From the IMG/VR virus record IMGVR_UViG_2529292904_000023: 27,930 nt of DNA; one strand, 5' to 3'. Both the position numbers and the translations under genes were made by a program. This DNA is from a virus (lineage: Duplodnaviria; Heunggongvirae; Uroviricota; Caudoviricetes). The notes under the pieces are model-generated. The model had not been told where the DNA came from, ran no database searches, and saw only the letters and a list, made by a program, of their open reading frames with translations. Positions 11,550 to 24,921 of the stretch are shown one piece after another. Each line of letters begins with the position of its first letter. Position 1 is the stretch's first letter.

Positions 11550-12095
11550 ATGGCAACCACCCCTACCCAAACTCACCCTAAAATTGATGTTATCCATGGG
11601 AAGGCTGTTACCTCTTCTTTGGCCGTTGCCGAATATTTCTGCAAGCAGCACAAAAACGTTATTCAAAAAATCCAGACGCTTGAGTGCTCTGTTGAATTCA
11701 CTGAGCTGAATTTTCAGCCCAGTGATTACACCGATTGCACAGGCCGCAAACTCCCTTGTTACCAAATCACCCGCGACGGTTTTGCGTTTCTTGCCATGGG
11801 CTTCACGGGTAAACGTGCTGCCCAGTTCAAAGAGGCATACATCAATGCCTTTAACCAGATGGAGAAACAGCTTTCAAATCCCTCTGTACTGAGCGACGTT
11901 GCACATAACGCCAGCGTTCTCTATTCCTACATTTCATCAATTCATCAGGTCTGGCTGCAGCAGCTTTATCCTATGTTGGCAAAAGCCGAATCTCCGCTGG
12001 CTGTTAGCTTGTATGACTATATTAATGATGCTTCGGCACTGGCCTGCCTCATAAATTTGTCGCTGAACCCTTCAGAGGTAAGGGGGCGCAAATGA
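11550..12095 (+). CDS. rha: Rha-family phage regulatory protein
   Basis: KAVTSSLAVAEYFCKQHKNVIQKIQTL...YQITRDGFAFLAMGFTGKRAAQFKEAYINAFNQME; start ATG 11550 with GAGGA Shine-Dalgarno; the 600-nt upstream extension in the track is not accepted as part of this gene. Confidence 0.7.
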   Translation: MATTPTQTHPKIDVIHGKAVTSSLAVAEYFCKQHKNVIQKIQTLECSVEFTELNFQPSDYTDCTGRKLPCYQITRDGFAFLAMGFTGKRAAQFKEAYINAFNQMEKQLSNPSVLSDVAHNASVLYSYISSIHQVWLQQLYPMLAKAESPLAVSLYDYINDASALACLINLSLNPSEVRGRK

Positions 12096-12316
12096 TCCGG
12101 AATATTTTCAAACGGTTTACCAATCAGACTTTCCGTTGTCCTCGTCCGGGTCAGTGGTACACCACACCTGCAGGGCATGTTCTACGTGTTAGCCTGGTTG
12201 ACCGTGAATGTCAGAAGGTGATTTGTGAACCGCTGGGCCGTAATTACCGCGTCAGTATGCCGCTTATAGCCTTTCGCTCCGGAAAAAACATGAAGCATCT
12301 CGGAGGTGCAGCATGA
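12092..12316 (+). CDS. Hypothetical protein, 74 aa
   Basis: ATGA-coupled to both neighbours. Confidence 0.45.
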   Translation: MIRNIFKRFTNQTFRCPRPGQWYTTPAGHVLRVSLVDRECQKVICEPLGRNYRVSMPLIAFRSGKNMKHLGGAA

Positions 12317-13152
12317 GTATGGAGCTGATGGTTAAAGCGATGAAAATTCGAGTGGGTAATCCATTGCGAAAACTGGTTCTGATCAAGCTGGCTGATAATG
12401 CCAGCGATCAGGGTGAGTGCTGGCCCAGCTACCAGCATATTGCTGACCAGTGCGAGATTAGCAAACGTTCTGTGATGAATCATATTGCGGCCCTTTGTGA
12501 GTCCGGGCTGGTAAAAAAAGTCACCCGGAAAGGTGAAAAAGGTAACTCAAGTAATATCTATCTCCTTCATCTTGATGGTGCAGGAGATTCACTAGGGAGT
12601 AGTGCAAATAATTCACTATCTGGTGCAGCAAATTCACCAGGTAGTGCAGGAGTTGCACTAGGTAGTGCAGGAGTTGCACCAGGGGGTAGTGCAGGAGATT
12701 CACCCAGAACCAGTCACTCTTTTGAACCAGTCAAAGAACCAGTCAATGAACCAATAGCTGTTGGTGCATCTGCTGATGAGTCTGTGCGAGTTCGTTCAAA
12801 CCGACCGGAATACTCTCCAGAGTTTGAGCAGGCATGGCTGGCATATCCCAAACGTGCTGGTGGCAATTCAAAATCTGCAGCCTTCAAAGCCTGGAAAGCC
12901 CGTTTGAATGAGGGGGTAAACCCCGAAACCATGCTGGAAGGTGTGAAACGCTACGCGGGCTGGGTATCTGCGATGGGTAACAGCGGCACACAATTTGTGA
13001 AACAGGCTGTCACGTTCTTTGGTCCGGATCGTCATTTCGAAGAATCCTGGGAAGTTCCTGCGGTATCTGTAGCCGGACGTGAGGACCCGTACTTCAAAGC
13101 CAGTTACGGCAACGTGGACTACAGCCAGATCCCGGCAGGATTCAGGGGGTGA
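12313..13152 (+). CDS. Replication initiator-like protein (winged-helix N-terminus, YdaU/DUF1376-like) containing the iteron array
   Basis: N-terminal LVLIKLADNASDQGECWPSYQHIADQCEISKRSVMNHIAALCESGLVKK; internal low-complexity segment encoded by the tandem repeats; position equivalent to lambda O. Confidence 0.55.
   Translation: MSMELMVKAMKIRVGNPLRKLVLIKLADNASDQGECWPSYQHIADQCEISKRSVMNHIAALCESGLVKKVTRKGEKGNSSNIYLLHLDGAGDSLGSSANNSLSGAANSPGSAGVALGSAGVAPGGSAGDSPRTSHSFEPVKEPVNEPIAVGASADESVRVRSNRPEYSPEFEQAWLAYPKRAGGNSKSAAFKAWKARLNEGVNPETMLEGVKRYAGWVSAMGNSGTQFVKQAVTFFGPDRHFEESWEVPAVSVAGREDPYFKASYGNVDYSQIPAGFRG
12577..12705. repeat. Iteron array (about six ~21-bp direct repeats, consensus GGTAGTGCAGGAGTTGCACYA), candidate replication origin
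   Basis: Direct repeats read in the sequence, followed at 12706-12760 by three GAACCAGTCA repeats; lambda-like ori lies inside the initiator gene. Confidence 0.6.
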
Positions 13153-13154
13153 TC

Positions 13155-13643
13155 ATGAGTCTTTTGAATGACGTTCAGAAATTCATTGAAGCCCATCCGG
13201 GGTGTACTTCCGGAGACATTGCGGATGCTTTTGCCGGTTACTCACGGCAGCGCGTTCTGCAGTCAGCAAGCAAGTTACGTCAGAGTGGGCGTGTGGCTCA
13301 CCGTTGTGAAGGAGATACACGCAGACATTTCCCGCGCCTGACTGAGAGAGCGCAGGAACCGGAACCACAACCAGTTCGAGAAACCAGACCTGTGCGCAAT
13401 TTCTATGTCGGCACTAACGATCCACGGGTGATTTTGTGCCTGACCCGCCAGGCGGAAGAACTGGAGTCCAGGGGCTTATACCGTCGTGCTGCAACGGTGT
13501 GGATGGCGGCATTCCGTGAAAGCCACTCCCAGCAAGAGCGAAACAATTTTCTGGCGCGTCGTGAGCGGTGCTTACGGAAAAGCAGCAAGCGCGCTGCATC
13601 GGGTGAAGAGTGGTATCTGTCAGGGAATTACGTGGGGGCTTAA
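13155..13643 (+). CDS. Hypothetical protein with a winged-helix-like N-terminus
   Basis: ATG 13155 with AGGGGGT Shine-Dalgarno; an alternative GTG at 13149 overlaps the upstream stop. Confidence 0.4.
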   Translation: MSLLNDVQKFIEAHPGCTSGDIADAFAGYSRQRVLQSASKLRQSGRVAHRCEGDTRRHFPRLTERAQEPEPQPVRETRPVRNFYVGTNDPRVILCLTRQAEELESRGLYRRAATVWMAAFRESHSQQERNNFLARRERCLRKSSKRAASGEEWYLSGNYVGA

Positions 13644-14296
13644 TGAGTAATAAATATTGCCAGGCGCTGGTGGAACTGCGGAACAAACCAGCCCATGAAC
13701 TGAAGGAAGTGGGCGATCAGTGGCGCACGCCGGACAACATTTTCTGGGGAATTAACACCCTGTTTGGCCCGTTTGTTCTGGATCTGTTCACTGACGGTGA
13801 TAATGCCAAATGTGCCGCGTATTACACGGCGGAAGACAACGCGCTGGCGCATGACTGGTCAGAACGTCTTGCGGAGCTTAAAGGTGCTGCCTTTGGTAAT
13901 CCCCCATACAGCCGCGCCAGTCAGCATGAGGGGCAATACATCACCGGCATGCGTTACATCATGAAGCATGCCAGTGCCATGCGTGATAAAGGCGGGCGCT
14001 ATGTTTTCCTGATTAAAGCTGCCACCAGCGAAGTGTGGTGGCCGGAAGATGCAGATCATATTGCTTTTATTCGCGGGCGTATTGGTTTTGAACTGCCTGT
14101 CTGGTTTATCCCGAAAGACGAGAAGCAGGTACCGACAGGCGCTTTCTTCGCTGGTGCTATTGCTGTTTTCGACAAGACCTGGAAGGGACCGGCAATCAGC
14201 TACATCGGGCGCGATGAACTTGAGGCATGTGGTGAGGCCTTTCTGGCGCAGGTTCGCCAGCAGGCGGAAAAACTGGTCAGGGAGATGGCGGCATGA
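13643..14296 (+). CDS. Phage Dam-like N6-adenine DNA methyltransferase (orphan)
   Basis: Catalytic NPPY motif (FGNPPYSRAS); start ATG 13643 in TAATG overlap; no adjacent restriction gene. Confidence 0.7.
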   Translation: MSNKYCQALVELRNKPAHELKEVGDQWRTPDNIFWGINTLFGPFVLDLFTDGDNAKCAAYYTAEDNALAHDWSERLAELKGAAFGNPPYSRASQHEGQYITGMRYIMKHASAMRDKGGRYVFLIKAATSEVWWPEDADHIAFIRGRIGFELPVWFIPKDEKQVPTGAFFAGAIAVFDKTWKGPAISYIGRDELEACGEAFLAQVRQQAEKLVREMAA

Positions 14297-14619
14297 CGAC
14301 GTTAACTCAATGCCAGCAGCAGGTGCTGGATATGCTGATTTCTTACCAGAAAGAGCGTGGCTTTCCGCCAACCAATCAGGAGGTGGCAACCATGCTGGGA
14401 TATCGTTCAGTGAATGCAGCGGTGGAGCATCTTCGCGCACTGGAGAAAAAAGGCGTCATCACGATAAAGCGTGGTGTGGCCCGGGGGATAACGCTTCATA
14501 CCGCGGTGAAGGACGACGACAGCGAGGCGGTCGGGATTATCCGCTCACTGCTTGCCGGTGAGGAAAACGCCAGGCTGCGTGCAGCCCACTGGTTACATGA
14601 GAGGGGTCTGAAAGTATGA
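14293..14619 (+). CDS. LexA N-terminal DNA-binding-domain-only protein, no S24 peptidase domain
   Basis: LTQCQQQVLDMLISYQKERGFPPTNQEVATMLGYRSVNAAVEHLRALEKKGVITI closely parallels the recalled LexA N-terminus; 108 aa total. Confidence 0.7.
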   Translation: MTTLTQCQQQVLDMLISYQKERGFPPTNQEVATMLGYRSVNAAVEHLRALEKKGVITIKRGVARGITLHTAVKDDDSEAVGIIRSLLAGEENARLRAAHWLHERGLKV

Positions 14620-15005
14620 AGCTGATTCTGCCTTTCCCGCCCAGCGTGAACACGTACTGGCGACACCCCAACAAAGGGGCGTTTGCAGGTAAGAGCCTGA
14701 TAAGCGCGGCGGGGCGAAAATTCCAGAGCGCAGCGTGTGCAGCCATCATTGAGCAGTTACGTCGTTTGCCGAAACCAACGTCGGCACCAGCTTCAGTGGA
14801 GATCGTGTTGTTTCCTCCGGATAACCGGCTTCGCGATCTGGACAACTATAACAAGGCGCTGTTTGACGCCCTGACCCACGCGGGTGTGTGGGTGGACGAC
14901 AGCCAGGTGAAAAGAATGCTGGTGGAGTGGGGGCCGGTTATCCCGGAAGGGAAGGTCGAAATCACTATCAGTAAGTACGAGAAAACGGCGGGTGCAGCCG
15001 CCTGA
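14616..15005 (+). CDS. rusA: RusA Holliday-junction resolvase
   Basis: PPSVNTYWRH, RLRDLDNYNKALFDALTHAGVWVDDSQV; about 129 aa. Confidence 0.85.
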   Translation: MKLILPFPPSVNTYWRHPNKGAFAGKSLISAAGRKFQSAACAAIIEQLRRLPKPTSAPASVEIVLFPPDNRLRDLDNYNKALFDALTHAGVWVDDSQVKRMLVEWGPVIPEGKVEITISKYEKTAGAAA

Positions 15006-15024
15006 TTAAGAGGAGAAACGAAGT

Positions 15025-15822
15025 ATGAGTAATCTGATGGTTATTGATGGTATTGAAGTTCGTCGTGATGCTTATGGTCGTTACAGCCTGAACGATCTGC
15101 ACAGGGCTGCCGGTTCTCTGGATAAGCATAAGCCTGCATTCTGGCTCCGCAATGAGCAAACTGAACGTTTAATAAGCGAGTTGCAGATTTGCAACTCGGT
15201 CAATATAGCGCCAGTAAATGTCATTCGAGGTGGAAATAACCAGGGAACGTATGTCTGCAAGGAACTGGTGTATGCCTATGCAATGTGGATCAGCCCGTCA
15301 TTCCATCTGAAGGTGATCCGTACTTTCGATATGGTAACCAGCGCACCGGAAAAATTATCAGGACAGGCTGCTGACAAGATGCAGGCTGGCGTGATCCTGC
15401 TGGACTTTATGCGTCGGGAGTTAAACCTGTCTAACTCATCTGTGCTTGGTGCCTGTCAGAAACTCCAGGAGGCTGTTGGCTTACCGAATCTGGCACCGCG
15501 CTATGCCATTGATGCTCCTGCTGACGCGCCTGATGGCTCAAGTCGCCCCACGCTGTCGCTGAGTGCACTGCTGAAACAGTATGGTATCCGCCTGACGGCT
15601 AATCAGGCATATCACCAGATGGTGAAGCTGGGGATCGTCGAGCAGCGCGAACGATACAGCCGTACCGCGATTAACAACATCAAAAAATTCTGGTCGCTGA
15701 CGGCGAAAGGCTGCATGTTCGGCAAGAACATCACCAGTCCTGCAAATCCGCGCGAGACGCAGCCGCACTTCTTCGAATCCCGATTCCCTGAGCTGTTAAA
15801 GCTGCTCGATACCGTTCATTGA
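15025..15822 (+). CDS. KilA-N domain protein with an uncharacterised C-terminal domain
   Basis: N-terminal IDGIEVRRDAYGRYSLNDLHRAAG...AFWLRNEQTERLI...YVCKELVYAYAMWISPSFHLKVI; AGGAGA Shine-Dalgarno. Confidence 0.6.
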   Translation: MSNLMVIDGIEVRRDAYGRYSLNDLHRAAGSLDKHKPAFWLRNEQTERLISELQICNSVNIAPVNVIRGGNNQGTYVCKELVYAYAMWISPSFHLKVIRTFDMVTSAPEKLSGQAADKMQAGVILLDFMRRELNLSNSSVLGACQKLQEAVGLPNLAPRYAIDAPADAPDGSSRPTLSLSALLKQYGIRLTANQAYHQMVKLGIVEQRERYSRTAINNIKKFWSLTAKGCMFGKNITSPANPRETQPHFFESRFPELLKLLDTVH

Positions 15823-15823
15823 G

Positions 15824-16819
15824 GTGACCGTGAGAGCACTACTGACCCCTGAAATTGCCCCGCGTATGGGGATCGTATTGTTCAGACCAGGTTCAGAGCT
15901 GATGCCCCTGTTTATGCAGGGGCGTGTCCTGCTGGAGCCTGAGCCGGAACGTTATTCATCTTTCGCCAGTGGTGCCGTTCCGGCGGCATCACAACCGCTG
16001 GCGGATGATCCTGCCGTTCGGGCCGTGTTCCGCAATGATGCAGTGATCCGTCGTGCTGGTGGCGTGGAATGTCTTGAACGCTGGTTACTTCGTGAAAAAG
16101 GTTGCCAGTGGCCTCATTCCGACTGGCACAGCGAGAACATGACCACAATGCGACACTCGCCGGGCGCAATCCGTCTGTGCTGGCACTGCGATAACCAGCT
16201 GCGCGATCAGTTCACGGAACGGCTGGAATCAATGGCAACGGATAACTGTACCCGCTGGGTGTTGTCTGTTGTGCGTCGGGATCTCGGTTTTGATGACAGT
16301 CACGTTGTGACAATGCCGGAACTGTGCTGGTGGCTGATTCGTAATGACCTGGCGGATGCCTTACCGGAAAGTGCAGCCCGTAAGGCACTGAGATTACCGA
16401 AGCCTGTTGTGCCGTCTGTCACCCGGGAAAGTGACCTTGTGCCTTCGGTTCCTGCCACCAGCATCATCCAGGATAAAGCGAAAAAGGTGCTGGCGCTGAA
16501 AGTGGATCCGGAGTCGCCGGAGTCTTTTATGTTACGCCCAAAACGTCGCCGCTGGGTTAATGAAAAGTACACGCGCTGGGTTAAGACACAGCCGTGTGCA
16601 TGTTGTGGAAAGCCCGCTGATGATCCCCACCACCTGATAGGCCACGGTCAGTGTGGAATGGGTACAAAAGCGCATGACCTTTTTGTGTTGCCTTTGTGCA
16701 GAAAGCATCACGACGAGCTGCATGCGGATACCGTGGCATTTGAAGAGAAGTATGGCTCTCAGCTGGAGCTGATATTTCGTTTTATCGATCGTGCGCTGGC
16801 AATTGGCGTACTGGCGTAA
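15824..16819 (+). CDS. DUF968-like protein with a C-terminal HNH/zinc-finger-like motif
   Basis: C-terminal CACCGKPADDPHHLIGHG...CRKHHDELH; GTG start at 15824 or 15830. Confidence 0.55.
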   Translation: MTVRALLTPEIAPRMGIVLFRPGSELMPLFMQGRVLLEPEPERYSSFASGAVPAASQPLADDPAVRAVFRNDAVIRRAGGVECLERWLLREKGCQWPHSDWHSENMTTMRHSPGAIRLCWHCDNQLRDQFTERLESMATDNCTRWVLSVVRRDLGFDDSHVVTMPELCWWLIRNDLADALPESAARKALRLPKPVVPSVTRESDLVPSVPATSIIQDKAKKVLALKVDPESPESFMLRPKRRRWVNEKYTRWVKTQPCACCGKPADDPHHLIGHGQCGMGTKAHDLFVLPLCRKHHDELHADTVAFEEKYGSQLELIFRFIDRALAIGVLA

Positions 16820-16832
16820 GTGGAGAACGAGC

Positions 16833-17585
16833 ATGAACCTTGAAGCCTTACCGAAATATTACTCCCCGAAATCTCCAAAACTGAGCGATGACGCACCGGC
16901 GACAGGCTCTGGTGGTTTAACAATTACGGATGTGATGGCTGCGCAGGGGATGGTGCAGTCAAAAGCACCGCTTGGGTTTGCTTTATTCCTGGCAAAAGTT
17001 GGTGTTCAGGATCCTCAGTTTGCGATTGAAGGTCTGCTCAATTACGCGATGGCACTGGATAACCCGACATTGAATAAATTGAGTGAAGAAACCCGGCTAC
17101 AGATCATTCCTTACCTTGTGAATTTTGCCTTTGCTGATTATTCCAGGTCTGCGGCAAGTAAGGCTCGCTGTGAGCATTGTGCTGGTACTGGATTTCATAA
17201 TGTATTGCGCGAGGTGGTGAAACACTCCAGAAGCGGGGAATCTGTTATTAAGGAAGAGTGGGTGAAGGAACTATGTCAGCATTGTCATGGTAAGGGAGAA
17301 GTCAGCACAGCATGCAGAGGGTGCAAGGGTAAAGGTATTGTCCTGGATGAAAAAAGAACCCGGCTTCATGGCACACCTGTTTATAAGGTTTGTGGGCGTT
17401 GCAATGGAAACCGGTTTAGCAGTTTACCAACCACACTGGCGCGGCTTCATGTCCAGAAGCTGGTACCAGACCTGACGGATTATCAGTGGTACAAAGGATA
17501 TGCAGATGTCATTGATAAACTGGTTACAAAGTGCTGGCAGGAAGAAGCATATGCAGAGATACAATTGAGAAAGGTGACAAGATAA
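16833..17585 (+). CDS. Q: Late-gene antiterminator Q (phage 82 / QuuQ-like type)
   Basis: 250 aa directly upstream of the pR'/tR' candidate and the tRNA island; four Cys-x2-Cys pairs (CEHC, CQHC, CRGC, CGRC); GGAGA Shine-Dalgarno. Confidence 0.6.
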   Translation: MNLEALPKYYSPKSPKLSDDAPATGSGGLTITDVMAAQGMVQSKAPLGFALFLAKVGVQDPQFAIEGLLNYAMALDNPTLNKLSEETRLQIIPYLVNFAFADYSRSAASKARCEHCAGTGFHNVLREVVKHSRSGESVIKEEWVKELCQHCHGKGEVSTACRGCKGKGIVLDEKRTRLHGTPVYKVCGRCNGNRFSSLPTTLARLHVQKLVPDLTDYQWYKGYADVIDKLVTKCWQEEAYAEIQLRKVTR

Positions 17586-17616
17586 ATGGTTTTCGCCGAA
17601 GATGACGACATGATGC

Positions 17617-17645
17617 TTGCATTTTTCAAAAAATATGGATAAGAT
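17617..17645 (+). promoter_or_regulatory. Candidate late promoter pR' (-35 TTGCAT, 17-bp spacer, -10 TAAGAT)
   Basis: Located just 3' of Q and about 50 nt upstream of a strong terminator, as in lambdoid pR'/tR'. Confidence 0.4.
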
Positions 17646-17691
17646 TTTCCCAACGATGGGCTTTGTATGTCTACCGTTGATAAGATTTAAG

Positions 17692-17717
17692 AACCCGCCG
17701 ATGCGCGGGTTTTTTTG
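17692..17717 (+). terminator. tR'-like rho-independent terminator
   Basis: CCCGC-cgatgc-GCGGG followed by TTTTTTT. Confidence 0.65.
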
Positions 17718-17896
17718 TACCCAGAATCCTGTGAGCTATACGGAAAGTACACAGAAAGGAAGGTGCGACCACAATTAATAACAAAATCTTAAAAATTGCA
17801 CATGGCACTATTAGTTTTCTAAATATTGTGTATTTTTTGTATTGCAGGATGACCCTGTAACGAAGTTTGCGTAACAGCATTTTGCTCTACGAGTTT

Positions 17897-17926
17897 GCCA
17901 GCCTCCCCCAGTGGCTGGCTTTTTTA
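17897..17926 (+). terminator. Second rho-independent terminator
   Basis: GCCAGCC-loop-GGCTGGC followed by TTTTTTAT. Confidence 0.6.
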
Positions 17927-17948
17927 TGTCTGTAGCGTCAAAGCAGCA

Positions 17949-18047
17949 ATGTCGCTGGGGCGTCGTGCAATTGGCGTTGAGCTGGAGACTGAACGTTTTG
18001 AGCAGACGGTCAGGGAAGTTCAGGATTTAGTCAGTCAGAACGGATGA
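17949..18047 (+). pseudogene. 3'-terminal remnant of a DNA methyltransferase gene (last ~33 codons)
   Basis: Reading frame gives ...SVKAAMSLGRRAIGVELETERFEQTVREVQDLVSQNG-stop, resembling the C-terminal motif region of beta-class N6/N4 methyltransferases; upstream part replaced by the terminator. Confidence 0.4.
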
Positions 18048-18087
18048 TATTGCAGGATTAGTTACGTACCGTTATTATCCTGCGCCC

Positions 18088-18163
18088 GGCCCTTTAGCTC
18101 AGTGGTGAGAGCGAGCGACTCATAATCGCCAGGTCGCTGGTTCAAATCCAGCAAGGGCCACCA
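18088..18163 (+). tRNA. tRNA with CAU anticodon (Ile2/Met type, ileZ-like)
   Basis: Cloverleaf folded by hand: 7-bp acceptor stem, GCTC/GAGC D-stem, anticodon loop CTCATAA, T-loop TTCAAAT, encoded CCA. Confidence 0.85.
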
Positions 18164-18172
18164 TATCACATA

Positions 18173-18249
18173 CCGCCATTAGCTCATCGGGATAGAGCGT
18201 CAGCCTTCGAAGCTGGCTGTGCGGGGTTCAAGTCCCCGATGGCGGTCCA
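18173..18249 (+). tRNA. tRNA-Arg (anticodon UCG)
   Basis: Acceptor CCGCCAT/ATGGCGG, anticodon loop CTTCGAA, T-arm CGGGG-TTCAAGT-CCCCG, encoded CCA. Confidence 0.8.
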
Positions 18250-18262
18250 TTATCAGCATCAT

Positions 18263-18339
18263 GCGTTGTTAGCTCAGCCGGACAGAGCAATTGCCTTCTA
18301 AGCAATCGGTCACTGGTTCGAATCCAGTACAACGCGCCA
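18263..18339 (+). tRNA. tRNA-Arg (anticodon UCU)
   Basis: Acceptor GCGTTGT/ACAACGC, anticodon loop CTTCTAA, T-loop TTCGAAT, encoded CCA. Confidence 0.85.
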
Positions 18340-18626
18340 CACCACACTTATCTGCCCTGACTCTCTTTTGCGGGCTTTTTATTACAGGAAAGACACCGGA
18401 CAGTGAAATGTTAAATGCCTCACAATTCAGGTAGTCGACTGTTGCCTGACATGCTGAGCGTTTGTTAAAAAAATCCTGCATGATGAATCCCCCTGGGCGG
18501 CGGGGCATAATGACAGATGTTTGGTTGCGTATTGTATAGGCAAGTTGCGGATTCTGTCTGGTCATTGCAGAATTCACCGGGAGGCACCCGGCATCATGCT
18601 GTATACAGAGATTAGGCATATATCCA

Positions 18627-18652
18627 GGCTCCTCATCGCAGGAGCCTTTTTA
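18627..18652 (+). terminator. Rho-independent terminator
   Basis: GGCTCCT-catcgc-AGGAGCC followed by TTTTT. Confidence 0.6.
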
Positions 18653-18656
18653 CATG

Positions 18657-18682
18657 CAAAAAAAGCCCGAGTAGGTTCGGGC
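18657..18682 (-). terminator. Convergent minus-strand terminator
   Basis: A-run then GCCCGA-gtaggt-TCGGGC; reads as hairpin plus T-run on the minus strand. Confidence 0.5.
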
Positions 18683-18864
18683 AACAGCATGAGATACTTG
18701 CATTGTCATTTTTATCGTGTGGATTTTAACCAGGGTTTATCAGGCTGCGCAACTGCGTGGCCTTTTTTCATTTCTTGGGCTGTAGTCCCCGTGTGTCATT
18801 CAGGCTTCCGGACTACAGCCCACTCCATATCTGATTTAATACACTATCCCGGCCGGGAGGAATA

Positions 18865-20718
18865 ATGACATTTAAACATTATGATGTTGTCAGGGCGGCG
18901 TCGCCGTCAGACCTTGCGGAAAAGCTGACACACAAACTGAAAGAGGGCTGGCAGCCGTTTGGTAGTCCGGTGGCCATAACCCCTTATACCCTGATGCAGG
19001 CGATTACAGCAGAAGGTGATGTGATGGTCAGTGGTGCAACTGAGCCGGATTGGTACTACGTCATCGTACTGGCCGGGCAGTCCAATGCCATGGCTTACGG
19101 TGAAGGGCTTCCGCTTCCGGATTCATACGATGCGCCCCATCCGCGCATTAAGCAACTGGCCCGTCGTAACACAGTGACTCCCGGTGGTGAAGTATGCGTA
19201 TTTAACGACATCATTCCTGCTGACCATTGTCTGCATGATGTTCAGGATATGAGTACGATTAACCATCCCCGGGCTGACCTGAGCAAAGGGCAGTACGGCT
19301 GTGTCGGACAGGGCTTACATATTGCCAAAAAACTGCTTCCGTATATCCCTAATAATGCGGGGATCCTGCTGGTACCATGCTGTCGTGGTGGTTCGGCATT
19401 CACCCAGGGCACGGAGGGGACATTCAGCGAGTCCACGGGGGCCAGTCAGGATTCGGCTCGCTGGGGAGTGGGTAAGCCGTTATATCAGGATCTGCTTTTC
19501 CGCACGAAGGCAGCATTGCAGAAAAACCCGAAAAACGTTTTGCTGGCGATATGCTGGATGCAGGGGGAATTCGATATGACGAATGCCAGTTACGCCCAGC
19601 AGCCAGCAGCATTTCTTGCAATGGTACAGCAGTTCCGTGCTGACCTTGCCGGGCTGGCGGCGCAGTGTCACGGTGGAAGTCCGGCATCAGTCCCCTGGAT
19701 TTGTGGCGACACGACATACGCGTGGAAACAAGAACACGGTACGCAATATGAAGTGGTATATGGTGCATATAAAGGTAAAGAATCCCAGCAGATTTATTTT
19801 GTTCCCTTTATGACCGATGGTAGCGGAGTTAATACACCGACAAACAACCCGTCAGAAGATCCTGATATTGTCGGGTCTGGTTATTACGGTTCGGCATCCC
19901 GAACGAACAAAAACTGGGTATCATCAAATCGCCCGACGCATTTCAGCTCATGGGCGCGTCGTGGCATTATTCCCGATCGTATGGCAACCGCTATTCTGAA
20001 CGCAGCCGGGCGCACCTCAGCCTTCATCAGTGGTAAGGCACCGGAAATCAAACCCTCGCCCGGCGGCGACACGCCATCGGGTCCGTCTACAGATACGTCC
20101 GTTCGCACAATCTCCCTGCTGCCGACAGCCGGAGAGGCTGCTGCGCAGGGCTGGACCATTAAGGACGGCGGAATTCAGTTGTCGGGTGGTGTATTTAAGA
20201 TCGCCAAGCAGAGCAATAAAACCTGGTCCCTGACGCGCCCGGTGGATGACGCAGTCTCCCTGCTGACACGGGGTGGCAGACTGAGCTGTAAGTTTCGACT
20301 GTCAGGCGCACTGACCAACAATCAGTTCGGTCTGGGAATTTATCTGTATACCGATGTAGCGTTACCTGACGTCGTGGCGATGACGGGTACCGGTAACCCG
20401 TTCCTGATGTCGTTCTTCACCCAGACCACAGACGGCAAACTGAATCTGATGCATCACAAGAAAGCAGGAAACACAAAGTTGGGCGAGTTCGGGAATTACA
20501 GTAACGACTGGCAGACGCTGGAGCTGGTGTTCACCGCCGGCAGTGCCACGGTTACTCCGAAACTGAATGGAGTGGCTGGCCCGGCATTCCAGGTCATAAA
20601 AGACAGTCTGACACTGGGGCTGAATGCGCTGACGCTGACGGATATTACCAAAAATGCAGCGTATGGCGTTGAGATAGAAAGTCTGGTGCTGGAGATAAAT
20701 GCACCGGCATCATCATAA
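18865..20718 (+). CDS. nanS-p: NanS-p-type sialate O-acetylesterase (SGNH/DUF303 esterase with C-terminal extension)
   Basis: VIVLAGQSNAMAYGEG catalytic-serine motif; 617 aa; occupies the position downstream of the tRNA island where Stx phages carry the homolog; GGGAGGA Shine-Dalgarno. Confidence 0.8.
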   Translation: MTFKHYDVVRAASPSDLAEKLTHKLKEGWQPFGSPVAITPYTLMQAITAEGDVMVSGATEPDWYYVIVLAGQSNAMAYGEGLPLPDSYDAPHPRIKQLARRNTVTPGGEVCVFNDIIPADHCLHDVQDMSTINHPRADLSKGQYGCVGQGLHIAKKLLPYIPNNAGILLVPCCRGGSAFTQGTEGTFSESTGASQDSARWGVGKPLYQDLLFRTKAALQKNPKNVLLAICWMQGEFDMTNASYAQQPAAFLAMVQQFRADLAGLAAQCHGGSPASVPWICGDTTYAWKQEHGTQYEVVYGAYKGKESQQIYFVPFMTDGSGVNTPTNNPSEDPDIVGSGYYGSASRTNKNWVSSNRPTHFSSWARRGIIPDRMATAILNAAGRTSAFISGKAPEIKPSPGGDTPSGPSTDTSVRTISLLPTAGEAAAQGWTIKDGGIQLSGGVFKIAKQSNKTWSLTRPVDDAVSLLTRGGRLSCKFRLSGALTNNQFGLGIYLYTDVALPDVVAMTGTGNPFLMSFFTQTTDGKLNLMHHKKAGNTKLGEFGNYSNDWQTLELVFTAGSATVTPKLNGVAGPAFQVIKDSLTLGLNALTLTDITKNAAYGVEIESLVLEINAPASS

Positions 20719-22978: not shown

Positions 22979-23285
22979 AAACCGGCCAAGGATAATCCGC
23001 TGAAGATTCGCCGGTGGCTAAAGTGTGCCAAGAGTTCAATTTACGCAATTACTCCAGTCGATGCTATGCACCGTCTTTGTGAAGTCAATGGATACCTGAT
23101 TTATTTCTGTGCGCTGTATCGTCGCTGTACTCTTGCATTAATTATGACTGTAGCCTGACGGGGAACTCCTTCTGCACAAGTGTGGGGGAATAATCAAAAA
23201 CGATGCACACCGGGGTTACCGGGTACACATATTTCATCATGCCAGCGAGTCCGGTTCTGGCACGGAAGAAACCGGACGTTATGAT

Positions 23286-23711
23286 TTAGTGCGGAAATAT
23301 TTGTGTAGTGTTCTGAATGTTCTCAGTAAAGAGTAATGAATTATCAAAGGTATAGTAATACCTTTTGTTTTCGTGGATATTTGTAATCCATCTGAAAACC
23401 CCTGCTGTAGCAAGATTTTTCCTGTATTCGTAAAATGATAACTCTCCTGATTTGAATCCTTTTAAGGTGGCTTCTATAAGGCATTTATTTTTTGAAAATC
23501 TTACATTTACAACCTTACCCTGTCCTTTTATTAAAACCGTATTATCGTTTTCAAGAACAAGATGAATATTCTCTGTGGCTAAATAGTAAATGTAATGTGA
23601 GACATTGTGACGTTTTAGTTCAGAATAAAACCAGTGATAGTTTAAATTATTTCGCACTTTATCGAATATTTGTTTAAAAATGGCAACCTGAGCCATTGTA
23701 GTACCTTCCAT
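23286..23711 (-). CDS. AT-rich hypothetical protein, possibly DUF1398 (YbcV/YdfO-like)
   Basis: Antisense to the late operon, downstream of Rz, as for ybcV in DLP12; family call is from memory of synteny, not sequence. Confidence 0.4.
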
Positions 23712-23753
23712 GTGATATGAGGGGGCGTAGTCTGCACGATTATCTAAATTGCT

Positions 23754-23987
23754 TCAATCTGGTCTGACCTGTTTTCTGAGCAATTCAGTAATGTCACTCT
23801 TTTCTTTGTTTGCTTCAGGCGAAACTCTTTTTACTGAGCACAGTCTCCGACGGCAGGCTTCAATGACCCAGGCTGAGAAATTCCCAGACCCTTTTTGCTC
23901 AAGAGCGATGTTAATTTGTTCAATCATTTGGTTAGGAAAGCGGATGTTGCGGGTTGTTGTTCTGCGGGTTCTGTTCTTCGTTGACAT
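23754..23987 (-). CDS. Small ribbon-helix-helix-like DNA-binding protein (YlcI/DUF3950-like?)
   Basis: Basic N-terminus, then IRFPNQMIEQINIALEQKGSGNFSAWVIEACRRRL, compatible with a beta-strand plus two helices. Confidence 0.45.
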   Translation of the reverse strand: MSTKNRTRRTTTRNIRFPNQMIEQINIALEQKGSGNFSAWVIEACRRRLCSVKRVSPEANKEKSDITELLRKQVRPD

Positions 23988-24186
23988 GAGGTTGCCCCGT
24001 ATTCAGTGTCGCTGATTTGTATTGTCTGAAGTTGTTTTTACGTTAAGTTGACGCAGATCAATTAATACGATACCTGCGTCATAATTGATTATTTGACGTG
24101 GTTTGATGGCGTAGATGCACGTTGTGACATGTAGATGATAATTATTATCATTTTGCGGGTCCTTTCCGGCGATCCGACAGGTTACG

Positions 24187-24198
24187 GGGCGGCGACCT
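24187..24198. other. cos site, lambda-type 12-nt cohesive end GGGCGGCGACCT
   Basis: GGGCGGCGACCTCGCGCGTTTTCACTATTTATGAG closely matches the recalled lambda left end; about 215 nt upstream of Nu1. Confidence 0.6.
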
Positions 24199-24414
24199 CG
24201 CGCGTTTTCACTATTTATGAGATTTTTTGAGGGGGTGGTTGTTGTTTAATTGTTTGGTATATCTAATTGATAAGTAAGGTGAAAATAAAATAAATACAAC
24301 AACCTTACGATGTGTTTTGATGTCGTCAATGCAAAAAATGTCAATGATATCAAATGGTTTTGCAAAAACACATGGTTGTTGTTTCGCTTTTTATCGATGA
24401 CTTATGGAGAGGAG

Positions 24415-24921
24415 ATGGCCTTTTTATTGAATAAAAGTGATATGGCCTCCTCCATCGGTATCTCTGTTCAGGCATTTGATAAATGGGGCGTTCCTCCTGT
24501 TGAACGTCGGGGGAGGGAAGTTTTATATGACGTTAAAACTGTACTGGAGATAGATCGCGAGCGGCGACAACACAATCAGAGAACACCTGATGACGGGGGA
24601 GAACTGGAGGAAAGGCTGCTTCGGGCCAGAGCTGAACTGACAGAAGAACAGGCTGTAGCTCAAAAACTTAAAAATCAGGTAACCGAAGGTAAGCTCATCG
24701 ATTCAGACTTCTGCGTTTTCGCCCTCAGCAAACTGGCGATGGCATTGTCCAGTACGCTTGATTCCATTCCGTTATCCATGCAGCGACAGTTCCCGGATTT
24801 AACGCCACGTCATATTGACCATCTGAAAACCCTTATTGCAAAGGGGGCAAATCAGTGTGCGCGGGCAGGGGATAAATTACCGGATTTACTCGATGAATAT
24901 ATCAGAGCAACAACTGAATAA
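24415..24921 (+). CDS. nu1: Terminase small subunit, Nu1-like
   Basis: Parallels the recalled lambda Nu1 (EVLYD, FCVFALSKLA, LPLSMQRQFPDL, LKTLIAKG); start ATG 24415 with GGAGAGGAG Shine-Dalgarno. Confidence 0.8.
   Translation: MAFLLNKSDMASSIGISVQAFDKWGVPPVERRGREVLYDVKTVLEIDRERRQHNQRTPDDGGELEERLLRARAELTEEQAVAQKLKNQVTEGKLIDSDFCVFALSKLAMALSSTLDSIPLSMQRQFPDLTPRHIDHLKTLIAKGANQCARAGDKLPDLLDEYIRATTE

Follow-up and report, generated by a model that had tools for sequence, protein, structure and literature searches.

A KilA-N/DUF968 gene pair upstream of the antiterminator gene Q in a lambdoid prophage, and palindromes embedded in genes for KilA-N, Bro-N, and Rha proteins

Location and distribution of the gene pair

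We analysed a stretch of viral DNA of 27,930 nt (Caudoviricetes; IMG/VR record IMGVR_UViG_2529292904_000023), referred to below as the window. This prophage sequence carries two adjacent genes which code for a KilA-N protein of 265 amino acids (aa) and for a protein of the DUF968 family. A perfect palindrome is embedded in the coding sequence of the KilA-N gene. The coordinates of the genes, domains, and palindromes are listed in Table 1.

The gene order is O-like initiator (starting at 12313), PerC-like, Dam, LexA DNA-binding domain, RusA, KilA-N, DUF968, Q, and three tRNAs. The order is of the nin type and the pair is located between RusA and Q, so that its assignment to the nin region in the original prediction, a note made from the sequence alone, was correct. 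The gaps between RusA, KilA-N, DUF968, and Q are 19, 1-7, and 13 nt, with a ribosome-binding site (RBS) at each. The KilA-N open reading frame (ORF) has an ATG start and the RBS GAGGAG. For the DUF968 gene, the GTG at 15824 results in a protein of 331 aa and the GTG at 15830 in one of 329 aa. The latter start is likelier because the RBS GAGG overlaps the stop codon of the KilA-N gene and because homologues in the databases have 329 aa. The true start of Q is the ATG at 16833, which has the RBS GGAG ahead of it, and PHROG matches the longer ORF only from residue 15 onwards. A consensus scan of the plus strand from 12000 to 18400 returned no promoter-like site. Given this result and the tight gaps with their RBSs, we read both genes as part of a delayed-early operon which ends in Q.

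Megablast matches to the 1.8-kb pair occur in 3728 of 5426 complete E. coli genomes, in 2116 of them with a coverage of at least 80%. At 95-98% sequence identity it is found in phages 2H10, SfV (orf44/orf45, annotated as 'unknown'), mEp460, Ayreon, Stx2c, Stx2k, and others; phage ST64B is also among the carriers. The pair is a standard cassette of enterobacterial lambdoid phages and consists neither of rare genes nor of chance ORFs. Both genes are already widely annotated and their neighbourhood has been described. Few uncharacterised gene pairs are as common in E. coli prophages, Shiga toxin (Stx) phages included, which by itself matters little.

Table 1. Genes, protein domains, and palindromes at the KilA-N/DUF968 locus. 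Models are from AlphaFold (AF2); pLDDT, predicted local distance difference test.
Feature	Coordinates	Strand	Evidence
RusA Holliday-junction resolvase	14616..15005	+	Pfam RusA E 1.1e-14; stop 19 nt ahead of KilA-N start
KilA-N::C-module protein, 265 aa, Roi-like DNA-binding (putative)	15025..15822	+	PHROG 129 full length E 3.9e-128; AF2 pLDDT 71
KilA-N domain, residues 7-105	15043..15339	+	Pfam KilA-N (PF04383)
Perfect palindrome CGAGTTGCA-gatt-TGCAACTCG	15177..15198	.	KilA-N coding sequence, residues ~51-58; found by repeat scan
Predicted helical hairpin, residues 115-151, start of C-module	15367..15477	+	AF2 secondary structure; conserved in 96 diverse homologues
C-terminal globular domain, residues 176-264, NPRETQPH motif	15550..15816	+	helix-turn-helix-like, then beta strands and helix (predicted)
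DUF968/YdfU/PdcB-family two-domain His-Me-finger protein	15830..16819 (alternative GTG 15824)	+	Pfam DUF968 E 3.8e-80; PHROG 96 E 1.1e-175
DUF968 N-terminal domain, residues ~60-190	16001..16393	+	AF2 pLDDT 75-92; conserved Cys/His; no Pfam match
HNH (His-Me finger) core CxCC...DDPHH...HD...PLCRxHHDELH	16580..16753	+	
Antiterminator Q, directly downstream	16833..17585	+	Pfam Antiterm E 2.5e-52
Palindrome loci other than 15177..15198	L010:8179-8709; L239-L246; L247-L346		

The encoded proteins and the slot before Q

The original prediction had described a KilA-N domain fused to an uncharacterised C-terminal half, and both parts of this description stand. Residues 7-105 match the Pfam model (E 2.5e-26; 92 bits with a cut-off of 23.8), and the protein has the APSES/KilA-N fold. 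No Pfam model matched residues 107-265 in a scan down to E<=10. PHROG 129, which covers the whole protein, is labelled 'transcriptional regulator'. The structure prediction proposed for the C-terminal half is now available: in the AlphaFold model, KilA-N (1-106) and the hairpin (115-151) are followed by a disordered linker (154-173) and a compact domain (176-264), which looks like a second helix-turn-helix.

When residues 107-265, which we call the C-module, were used in a full HMMER scan against 1.84 billion representatives, 810 clusters were returned. In a diverse set of 96 members, the domain on the N-terminal side is Phage_pRha (32), Bro-N (18), KilA-N (12), AntA (8), ORF6N (5), or P22_AR_N (1). 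In none of the 96 does a Pfam model cover the C-module, and none has an ANT match. A comparison by hhalign with the ANT domains (PF03374) of 33 locus-equivalent proteins was not significant (P 0.26-0.37). As it was not detected as a divergent ANT/KilAC domain either by Pfam (E<=10) or by hhalign, the C-module has been left as a separate module. It appears to be a widespread unnamed module within the domain-shuffling network of 'antirepressor-like' proteins and is not demonstrably ANT.

In the DUF968 protein, the Pfam model (PF06147) matches residues 162-328 with 268 bits (cut-off 27.8), and PHROG 96, labelled 'HNH endonuclease', spans the entire protein. HNHc_6 scored 25.9 bits, just below its cut-off of 26.6. 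The C-terminal Cys/His cluster of HNH type that had been noticed in the original prediction is real and conserved: C258, C261, H269, H270, H284, D285, C292, H296, and H300 are invariant across 17 homologues. In the AlphaFold model (pLDDT 66), these residues belong to a protein with a beta-beta-alpha-metal core that has zinc-binding Cys and catalytic His residues. The N-domain is modelled with confidence, has its own beta-beta-alpha element at 106-126, and shows conserved residues C94, H98, C119, and C122; between this domain and the C-terminal core there is a conserved basic stretch, FMLRPKRRRW. When the N-domain was aligned with the HNH domain of the same protein by hhalign, the motifs were in register with a P of only 0.47, which is not significant, and we do not claim that it is a degenerate HNH duplicate. 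As a separate observation, residue 277 (331-aa numbering; 16652-16654) is a Cys in the DUF968 protein and a Gly in 16 aligned homologues. The site is in the motif GHGQGGMG, which belongs to the loop that joins the two HNH strands.

Among solved structures, that of P1 Ref (PDB 3plw) comes closest to the HNH core, and YbcO is the other close neighbour of this core. Ref is a RecA-dependent HNH nuclease which cuts RecA-bound DNA only (PMC4330346). The Pfam model RecA_dep_nuc (PF16786) is not among the Pfam matches of the DUF968 protein from the window; one homologue (P0206) carries a precomputed match to it. Gp16 of PhiNM1, assigned to HNH 'subclass 6', is a RecA-interacting nickase which promotes phage propagation (PMC12817073), and we take this subclass to be HNHc_6. 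In a survey of His-Me-finger proteins, DUF968 was grouped with DUF1364/YbcO, genes for RusA, Q, and antirepressors were found as neighbours, and a role in recombination was proposed (PMC5714182).

At 80 IMG/VR loci with a near-identical DUF968 gene, a KilA-N::C-module gene is located directly 5' in 78. For a broader view we used a species-level set with one genome per species, which comprises 74 loci from Shigella to Gilliamella with DUF968 identities from 98% to 36%. Among the 71 of these that have an upstream ORF, this ORF codes for Rha+ANT in 28, KilA-N::C-module in 14, ORF6N+ANT in 5, and Rha only in 1; methyltransferases, RusA, and others make up the remainder. An antirepressor-class gene is thus found directly 5' of DUF968 in about two thirds of these 71 loci. 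On the 3' side, one of four Q types follows in 69 of the 71 loci that have a downstream ORF. The two main partner types alternate along the range of DUF968 identity (98% down to about 37%). The fact that they are interspersed indicates that it is the slot which is conserved, not one co-evolving partner.

Related arrangements occur elsewhere. HK022 has Roi (Rha+ANT), then a 96-aa YbcO-family nuclease (ATGA overlap), then RusA, and then Q, and Roi is ahead of YbcO in 51 of 80 related contigs. In P1, pdcB is located directly 5' of the late promoter activator gene lpa. For such binders we used a working class, which is not a curated one, named 'Roi-like nin-region DNA binder': a phage N-terminal DNA-binding domain plus some C-terminal module, encoded directly 5' of a group-7 His-Me nuclease near Q. 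By architecture and position, the KilA-N protein falls into this class, for which binding to a site inside the own gene (candidate 15177-15198) and IHF-dependent lytic growth would also be expected. From these neighbourhoods we conclude that there is a recurrent cassette in which an antirepressor-class DNA binder is followed by a group-7 His-Me nuclease and then by a late activator. This recurrence supports, but does not prove, some functional connection between binder and nuclease. The pattern spans HK022, P1, and lambdoids from Escherichia to Gilliamella and offers a testable frame for the 'y-ome' proteins YdfU, YbcO, and PdcB. In APSE-2, a 94-aa 'endonuclease' P44 (L239:1475-1759) is followed after a gap of ~400 nt by the KilA-N::C-module gene G and by two more antirepressor-like genes; binder and small nuclease are near each other there, and their order is opposite to that in the window.

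Palindromes embedded in DNA-binding-domain genes

The palindrome in the KilA-N gene (full site 15178-15197) occurs as a single copy in the whole window. The protein is highly conserved except for a single hypervariable segment, and the palindrome is located in the codons of this segment, both flanks of which are conserved. The octamer GAGTTGCA of the palindrome arms also occurs twice in the repeats of the O-like gene, at 12650 and 12671. This is probably a coincidence because other loci with the same palindrome do not reproduce it. The O-like gene (12313-13152) itself has repeats GGTAGTGCAGGAGTTGCAC with a spacing of 21 nt (12600-12700), which look like origin iterons and contain the octamer.

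In homologues of the KilA-N protein, the peptide of the hypervariable segment differs, and every variant comes with a palindrome of its own in this position. Examples are CAACACCCA-gaatt-TGGGTGTTG, ACTACGGGA-gat-TCCCGTAGT, CGATACAGGAATTCCTGTATCG, CAAAGCAGGAATTCCTGCTTTG, CGCTCCTG-acatca-CAGGAGCG, and CGATGCGA-taaatg-TCGCATCG; at least eight unrelated palindrome sequences were found among the variant classes. Perfect arms of at least 8 nt whose centre falls into a single 32-nt window are present in 11 of the 16 variant classes, compared to 0.56% of 360 control windows from the same genes (binomial p 6.6e-22; Mann-Whitney p 5.5e-9), with the caveat that the independence of the classes is incomplete. 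Compensatory double changes are also seen; for example, the arms are CGCTCCTG/CAGGAGCG in one variant and CACTCCTG/CAGGAGTG in another. Variants with an 11-aa tandem duplication have two copies of the palindrome. The gene for APSE-2 protein G and a distant KilA-N relative, an ORF whose C-terminus differs, also have a palindrome in the corresponding position.

Such palindromes extend to genes with other N-terminal domains. Among Rha::C-module genes, we found CTTTTCCTCAG-a-CTGAGGAAAAG in SopranoGao and CATCCTCA-atc-TGAGGATG in Medea1. Bro-N::C-module genes carry CAAACCGGC-aaatc-GCCGGTTTG and, as a compensated variant, CAAACCGCC...GGCGGTTTG. Bro-N genes that are devoid of the C-module also carry a palindrome, for example AAGGGTACCCACA-t-TGTGGGTACCCTT. 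In a set of 54 distinct N-terminal segments of the Bro-N type, 52% have arms of 8 nt or more within the first 330 nt, and most of these palindromes begin at nt 134-159, directly after the LDEDEKG motif. Palindromes with arms of at least 9 nt have a density of 2.39 per kb in Bro-N-type segments and of 0.127 per kb in 181 kb of flanking phage DNA. Windows within the same gene and the density in flanking DNA served as background; an estimate from all ORFs was dropped due to antisense ORFs and near-duplicates.

Of 38 distinct palindromes, 33 are perfect and 5 are imperfect, none of them with a G·T pair. The folding energies of the sense and antisense strands are similar, and the spacing of the outer half-sites is constant within a class. 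For these three reasons, a DNA dyad is favoured over an RNA hairpin. One variant, FTEGGIPP, would have pairing only with G·U. An Rfam scan of 14500-18500 returned no match beyond the tRNAs and weak chance ones, and on this basis we rejected a known RNA element. The encoded peptides reflect the palindromes in that they show antisense-codon symmetry, with K opposite L, GT opposite GT, and H opposite V. This symmetry points to selection on the nucleic acid which would be strong enough to shape the protein. Taken over the classes, the sequence comparison suggests embedded DNA palindromes of 16-27 bp, located about 130-210 nt into the coding sequence, which are variant-specific and keep their symmetry by compensatory changes. 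A description of an embedded palindrome of this kind was not found in the searchable literature.

A further repeat is noted here. A 20-nt inverted repeat (15054-15073 / 16703-16722; 90% complementary) brackets most of the two-gene cassette, with its arms in the VRRD codons of the KilA-N gene and in the HHDELH codons of the HNH motif. Its chance expectation is low by a rough estimate; both arms encode conserved motifs, and conservation is thus not a usable test.

Interpretation and alternative explanations

Our preferred reading, to which we give about an even chance, is a delayed-early module that combines a Roi-like binder, having a dyad in its own gene as target, with a His-Me nuclease of the recombination type. 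The pair would be expressed from the rightward early operon, just before Q. The KilA-N protein would be a Roi-like, probably dimeric, site-specific DNA binder built from KilA-N, the helical hairpin, and the helix-turn-helix-like C-module, and we infer that it most likely recognises the candidate site at 15177-15198. From this dyad, which is 1.6 kb upstream of Q on the same transcript, it might influence how far transcription continues into Q, or it might label the DNA for processing. The DUF968 protein would most likely act as a nuclease or nickase on recombination or replication intermediates during lytic growth, by analogy with Ref and Gp16 and in view of the neighbouring RusA gene. Any cooperation between the two proteins would come on top of this. 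In Stx phages, a factor that sets the timing of Q expression also bears on toxin output.

There are three precedents for a target within the own gene. HK022 Roi reportedly binds inside roi (Clerget and Boccard, 1996; cited in PMC3430580). Lambda O has cognate, type-specific, dyad-symmetric sites (ori) inside its own coding sequence, in a segment which is variable among lambdoids. The third precedent is aba, a DNA-based, homologue-specific immunity element of 63 bp that overlaps bstA and has terminal direct repeats at the start of the gene (PMC8585504).

Several points weigh against the preferred reading. The DUF968 protein remains 97-99% identical while the palindrome of the adjacent KilA-N gene changes completely, from which it follows that the sequence of the palindrome is not what the nuclease reads. 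Genes of the Bro-N and KilA-N types carry a palindrome also in contexts devoid of DUF968. HK022 roi has no strong palindrome. The searched literature contained no functional work on YdfU, PdcB, or other DUF968 proteins. On the first two of these points, we rejected the palindrome as a link between the KilA-N and DUF968 genes. It appears to be a property of genes for DNA-binding domains which is not tied to DUF968.

This leads to a more general proposal, which we put forward tentatively. Genes of the Bro-N/KilA-N/Rha class may each contain their own cognate operator within the codons of the specificity-determining segment and would then be portable cassettes of 'protein plus site'. If so, the protein would recognise the DNA molecule that encodes it, be it for self-marking, autoregulation, or the targeting of DNA processing. 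This would explain the free shuffling of domains and would predict the binding sites of thousands of uncharacterised phage proteins. The embedded palindrome as a predicted DNA site for this large and functionally opaque class is the part which specialists might find surprising.

The original prediction had noted that antirepressors share the architecture of the KilA-N protein. The C-module does not align with ANT/KilAC; the set of N-terminal domains listed above is shared with antirepressor-type proteins, and Rha+ANT (Roi-like) genes substitute for the KilA-N gene at the locus, to which they are allelic. In addition, a homologue is encoded directly after cro in the early operon of Pseudomonas and Ruminococcus phages. 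Accordingly, the C-module could inactivate a repressor (that of the prophage itself or of a co-resident one) or a host defence protein, with the N-domain serving only as a tether to DNA. We consider this unlikely. Beyond the lack of detectable ANT/KilAC homology, the C-domain resembles another helix-turn-helix, and it is hard to see what an antirepressor would act on if it is produced only once the same prophage has been derepressed. The label 'antirepressor' is an annotation habit for the whole class, and the function has been proven for few members (P22 Ant, P1 Ant).

The hypervariable, mosaic palindrome segment with its conserved flanks, next to a translationally coupled nuclease gene, is also reminiscent of a selfish element. 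GIY-YIG/T5orf172 homing endonucleases frequently have Bro-N or KilA-N domains as their DNA-binding modules (PMC8096241). The binder and a free-standing HNH nuclease might thus cut the allelic site in competing lambdoids and drive gene conversion, the polymorphism of the palindrome protecting 'self'. Such a homing-like cassette is distinctly unlikely, however, because DUF968 does not co-vary with the palindrome, because Bro-N, KilA-N, and Rha genes carry the palindrome even where no nuclease gene is next to them, and because P1 PdcB has lost the catalytic His pair, yet fold and position are kept.

An exclusion or anti-defence role had been raised in the original prediction, with the abortive-infection protein BstA as a model. 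No sequence evidence points to such a role of the pair. The BstA reference, the phage BTP1 protein (NC_042346.1), gave a best BLASTP E of 0.46 against the KilA-N protein, and the PADLOC BstA profile, which finds BstA itself at 1.9e-124, did not match the KilA-N protein at E<=1. There is no similarity beyond the KilA-N fold, so that we rejected homology to BstA and the resemblance is one of architecture only. The sole PADLOC match, to the candidate PDC-S22, is weak (E 4.2e-06) and concerns only the KilA-N core. The bstA gene is located downstream of cI and is strongly expressed in lysogens (PMC8585504); the KilA-N gene is located between RusA and Q, outside the immunity region, in a delayed-early operon which is repressed, and lacks a promoter-like site of its own, whereas a defence gene needs expression in the lysogen. 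A BstA-type exclusion, in which the KilA-N protein would detect or bind the DNA of a foreign phage as it replicates and would then block it, with the palindrome in its gene as an aba-like 'self' element, could account for the shared architecture and for a variant-specific DNA element inside the gene. We regard it as very unlikely, also because the palindrome is ~150 nt inside the gene and not at its 5' end, and because Roi-like genes can replace the KilA-N gene at this locus.

A packaging function of the DUF968 protein, as an HNH protein of the HK97 gp74 type required by terminase for cos cleavage, is hardly credible: the role is common among phage HNH proteins (summarised in PMC12817073) and P1 pdcB is two genes before pacA/pacB, but the terminase of the prophage is of the lambda Nu1/gpA type (24310-26437) with its own endonuclease domain, 7.5 kb away, the neighbour of DUF968 is almost always Q and not terminase, and the same gene is present in SfV, Stx2c phages, and mEp460, whose packaging genes may differ, so that we rejected this function on terminase type and position.

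Other regions of the window also deserve mention. On the plus strand, 13149-13643 codes for a homologue of PerC-family transcriptional activators (E 2.2e-09) in the early operon, and 14293-14619 for a 108-aa protein which consists of the LexA DNA-binding domain only (Pfam LexA_DNA_bind E 2.9e-19), devoid of the cleavage/dimerisation domain. The latter could occupy SOS boxes without being subject to inactivation by RecA. The region 17585-18865, between Q and a 617-aa NanS-p-like esterase (DUF1737 + SASA + DUF6645), contains three tRNAs (Met, Arg, Arg) and no toxin ORF. This is the position where Stx phages carry stx, and because no toxin ORF is found there, the prophage looks like an stx-less relative of these phages. 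A partial match to the small RNA STnc100 begins at 18449, is truncated by the limit of the scanned region, and is under the gathering score. Between the lysis genes and terminase, the region 23000-24500 has a GC content of 0.39-0.40 compared to about 0.50, and contains a DUF1398 gene on the minus strand (23286-23711; E 3.3e-43). This low-GC island looks like a moron insertion.

Comparison with known systems

P1 Ref resembles the DUF968 protein in the structure of the HNH core. Ref is a single-domain protein of 186 aa, which Pfam assigns to RecA_dep_nuc, whereas the DUF968 protein has an extra folded N-domain of ~190 residues. P1 PdcB and YdfU from the E. coli Qin prophage belong to the same DUF968 family over their full length (PdcB with ~27% identity over residues 3-331). 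In PdcB (L156:4501-5544), the zinc-binding cysteines are kept, while the catalytic His-His and HHxxxH are lost; the protein from the window retains every conserved HNH residue. PdcB may thus be a non-catalytic member of the family. The location of pdcB ahead of lpa corresponds to that of the DUF968 gene ahead of Q. Unlike in the window, there is no KilA-N gene before pdcB, and phd-doc and pdcA are found there instead.

Lambda O is comparable by analogy only, as a DNA binder with cognate dyad sites inside a variable segment of its own coding sequence. It has four iterons and recruits P/DnaB, whereas the KilA-N gene usually has a single palindrome (two copies in some variants). Also, the window holds a separate gene for an O-like initiator with its own repeats.

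Like the KilA-N protein, BstA has a KilA-N-type N-domain joined to an unrelated C-domain, and its variant-specific DNA element aba, which overlaps its own gene (PMC8585504), may have a counterpart in the palindrome. Apart from the lack of any sequence or profile match, the two differ in genome position and in the logic of expression, and aba consists of terminal direct repeats at the gene start rather than of an internal palindrome.

In HK022, Roi combines Rha with ANT, whereas the protein from the window combines KilA-N with an unnamed C-module that has no detectable homology to ANT. The nuclease of HK022 is a single-domain YbcO protein (DUF1364) of 96 aa, compared to the two-domain DUF968 protein of 329 aa; the order relative to RusA is inverted, and a strong palindrome is lacking in roi. 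What the two loci have in common is a two-domain DNA binder which is followed, with overlapping stop and start signals, by a group-7 His-Me-finger nuclease in the nin region near RusA and Q.

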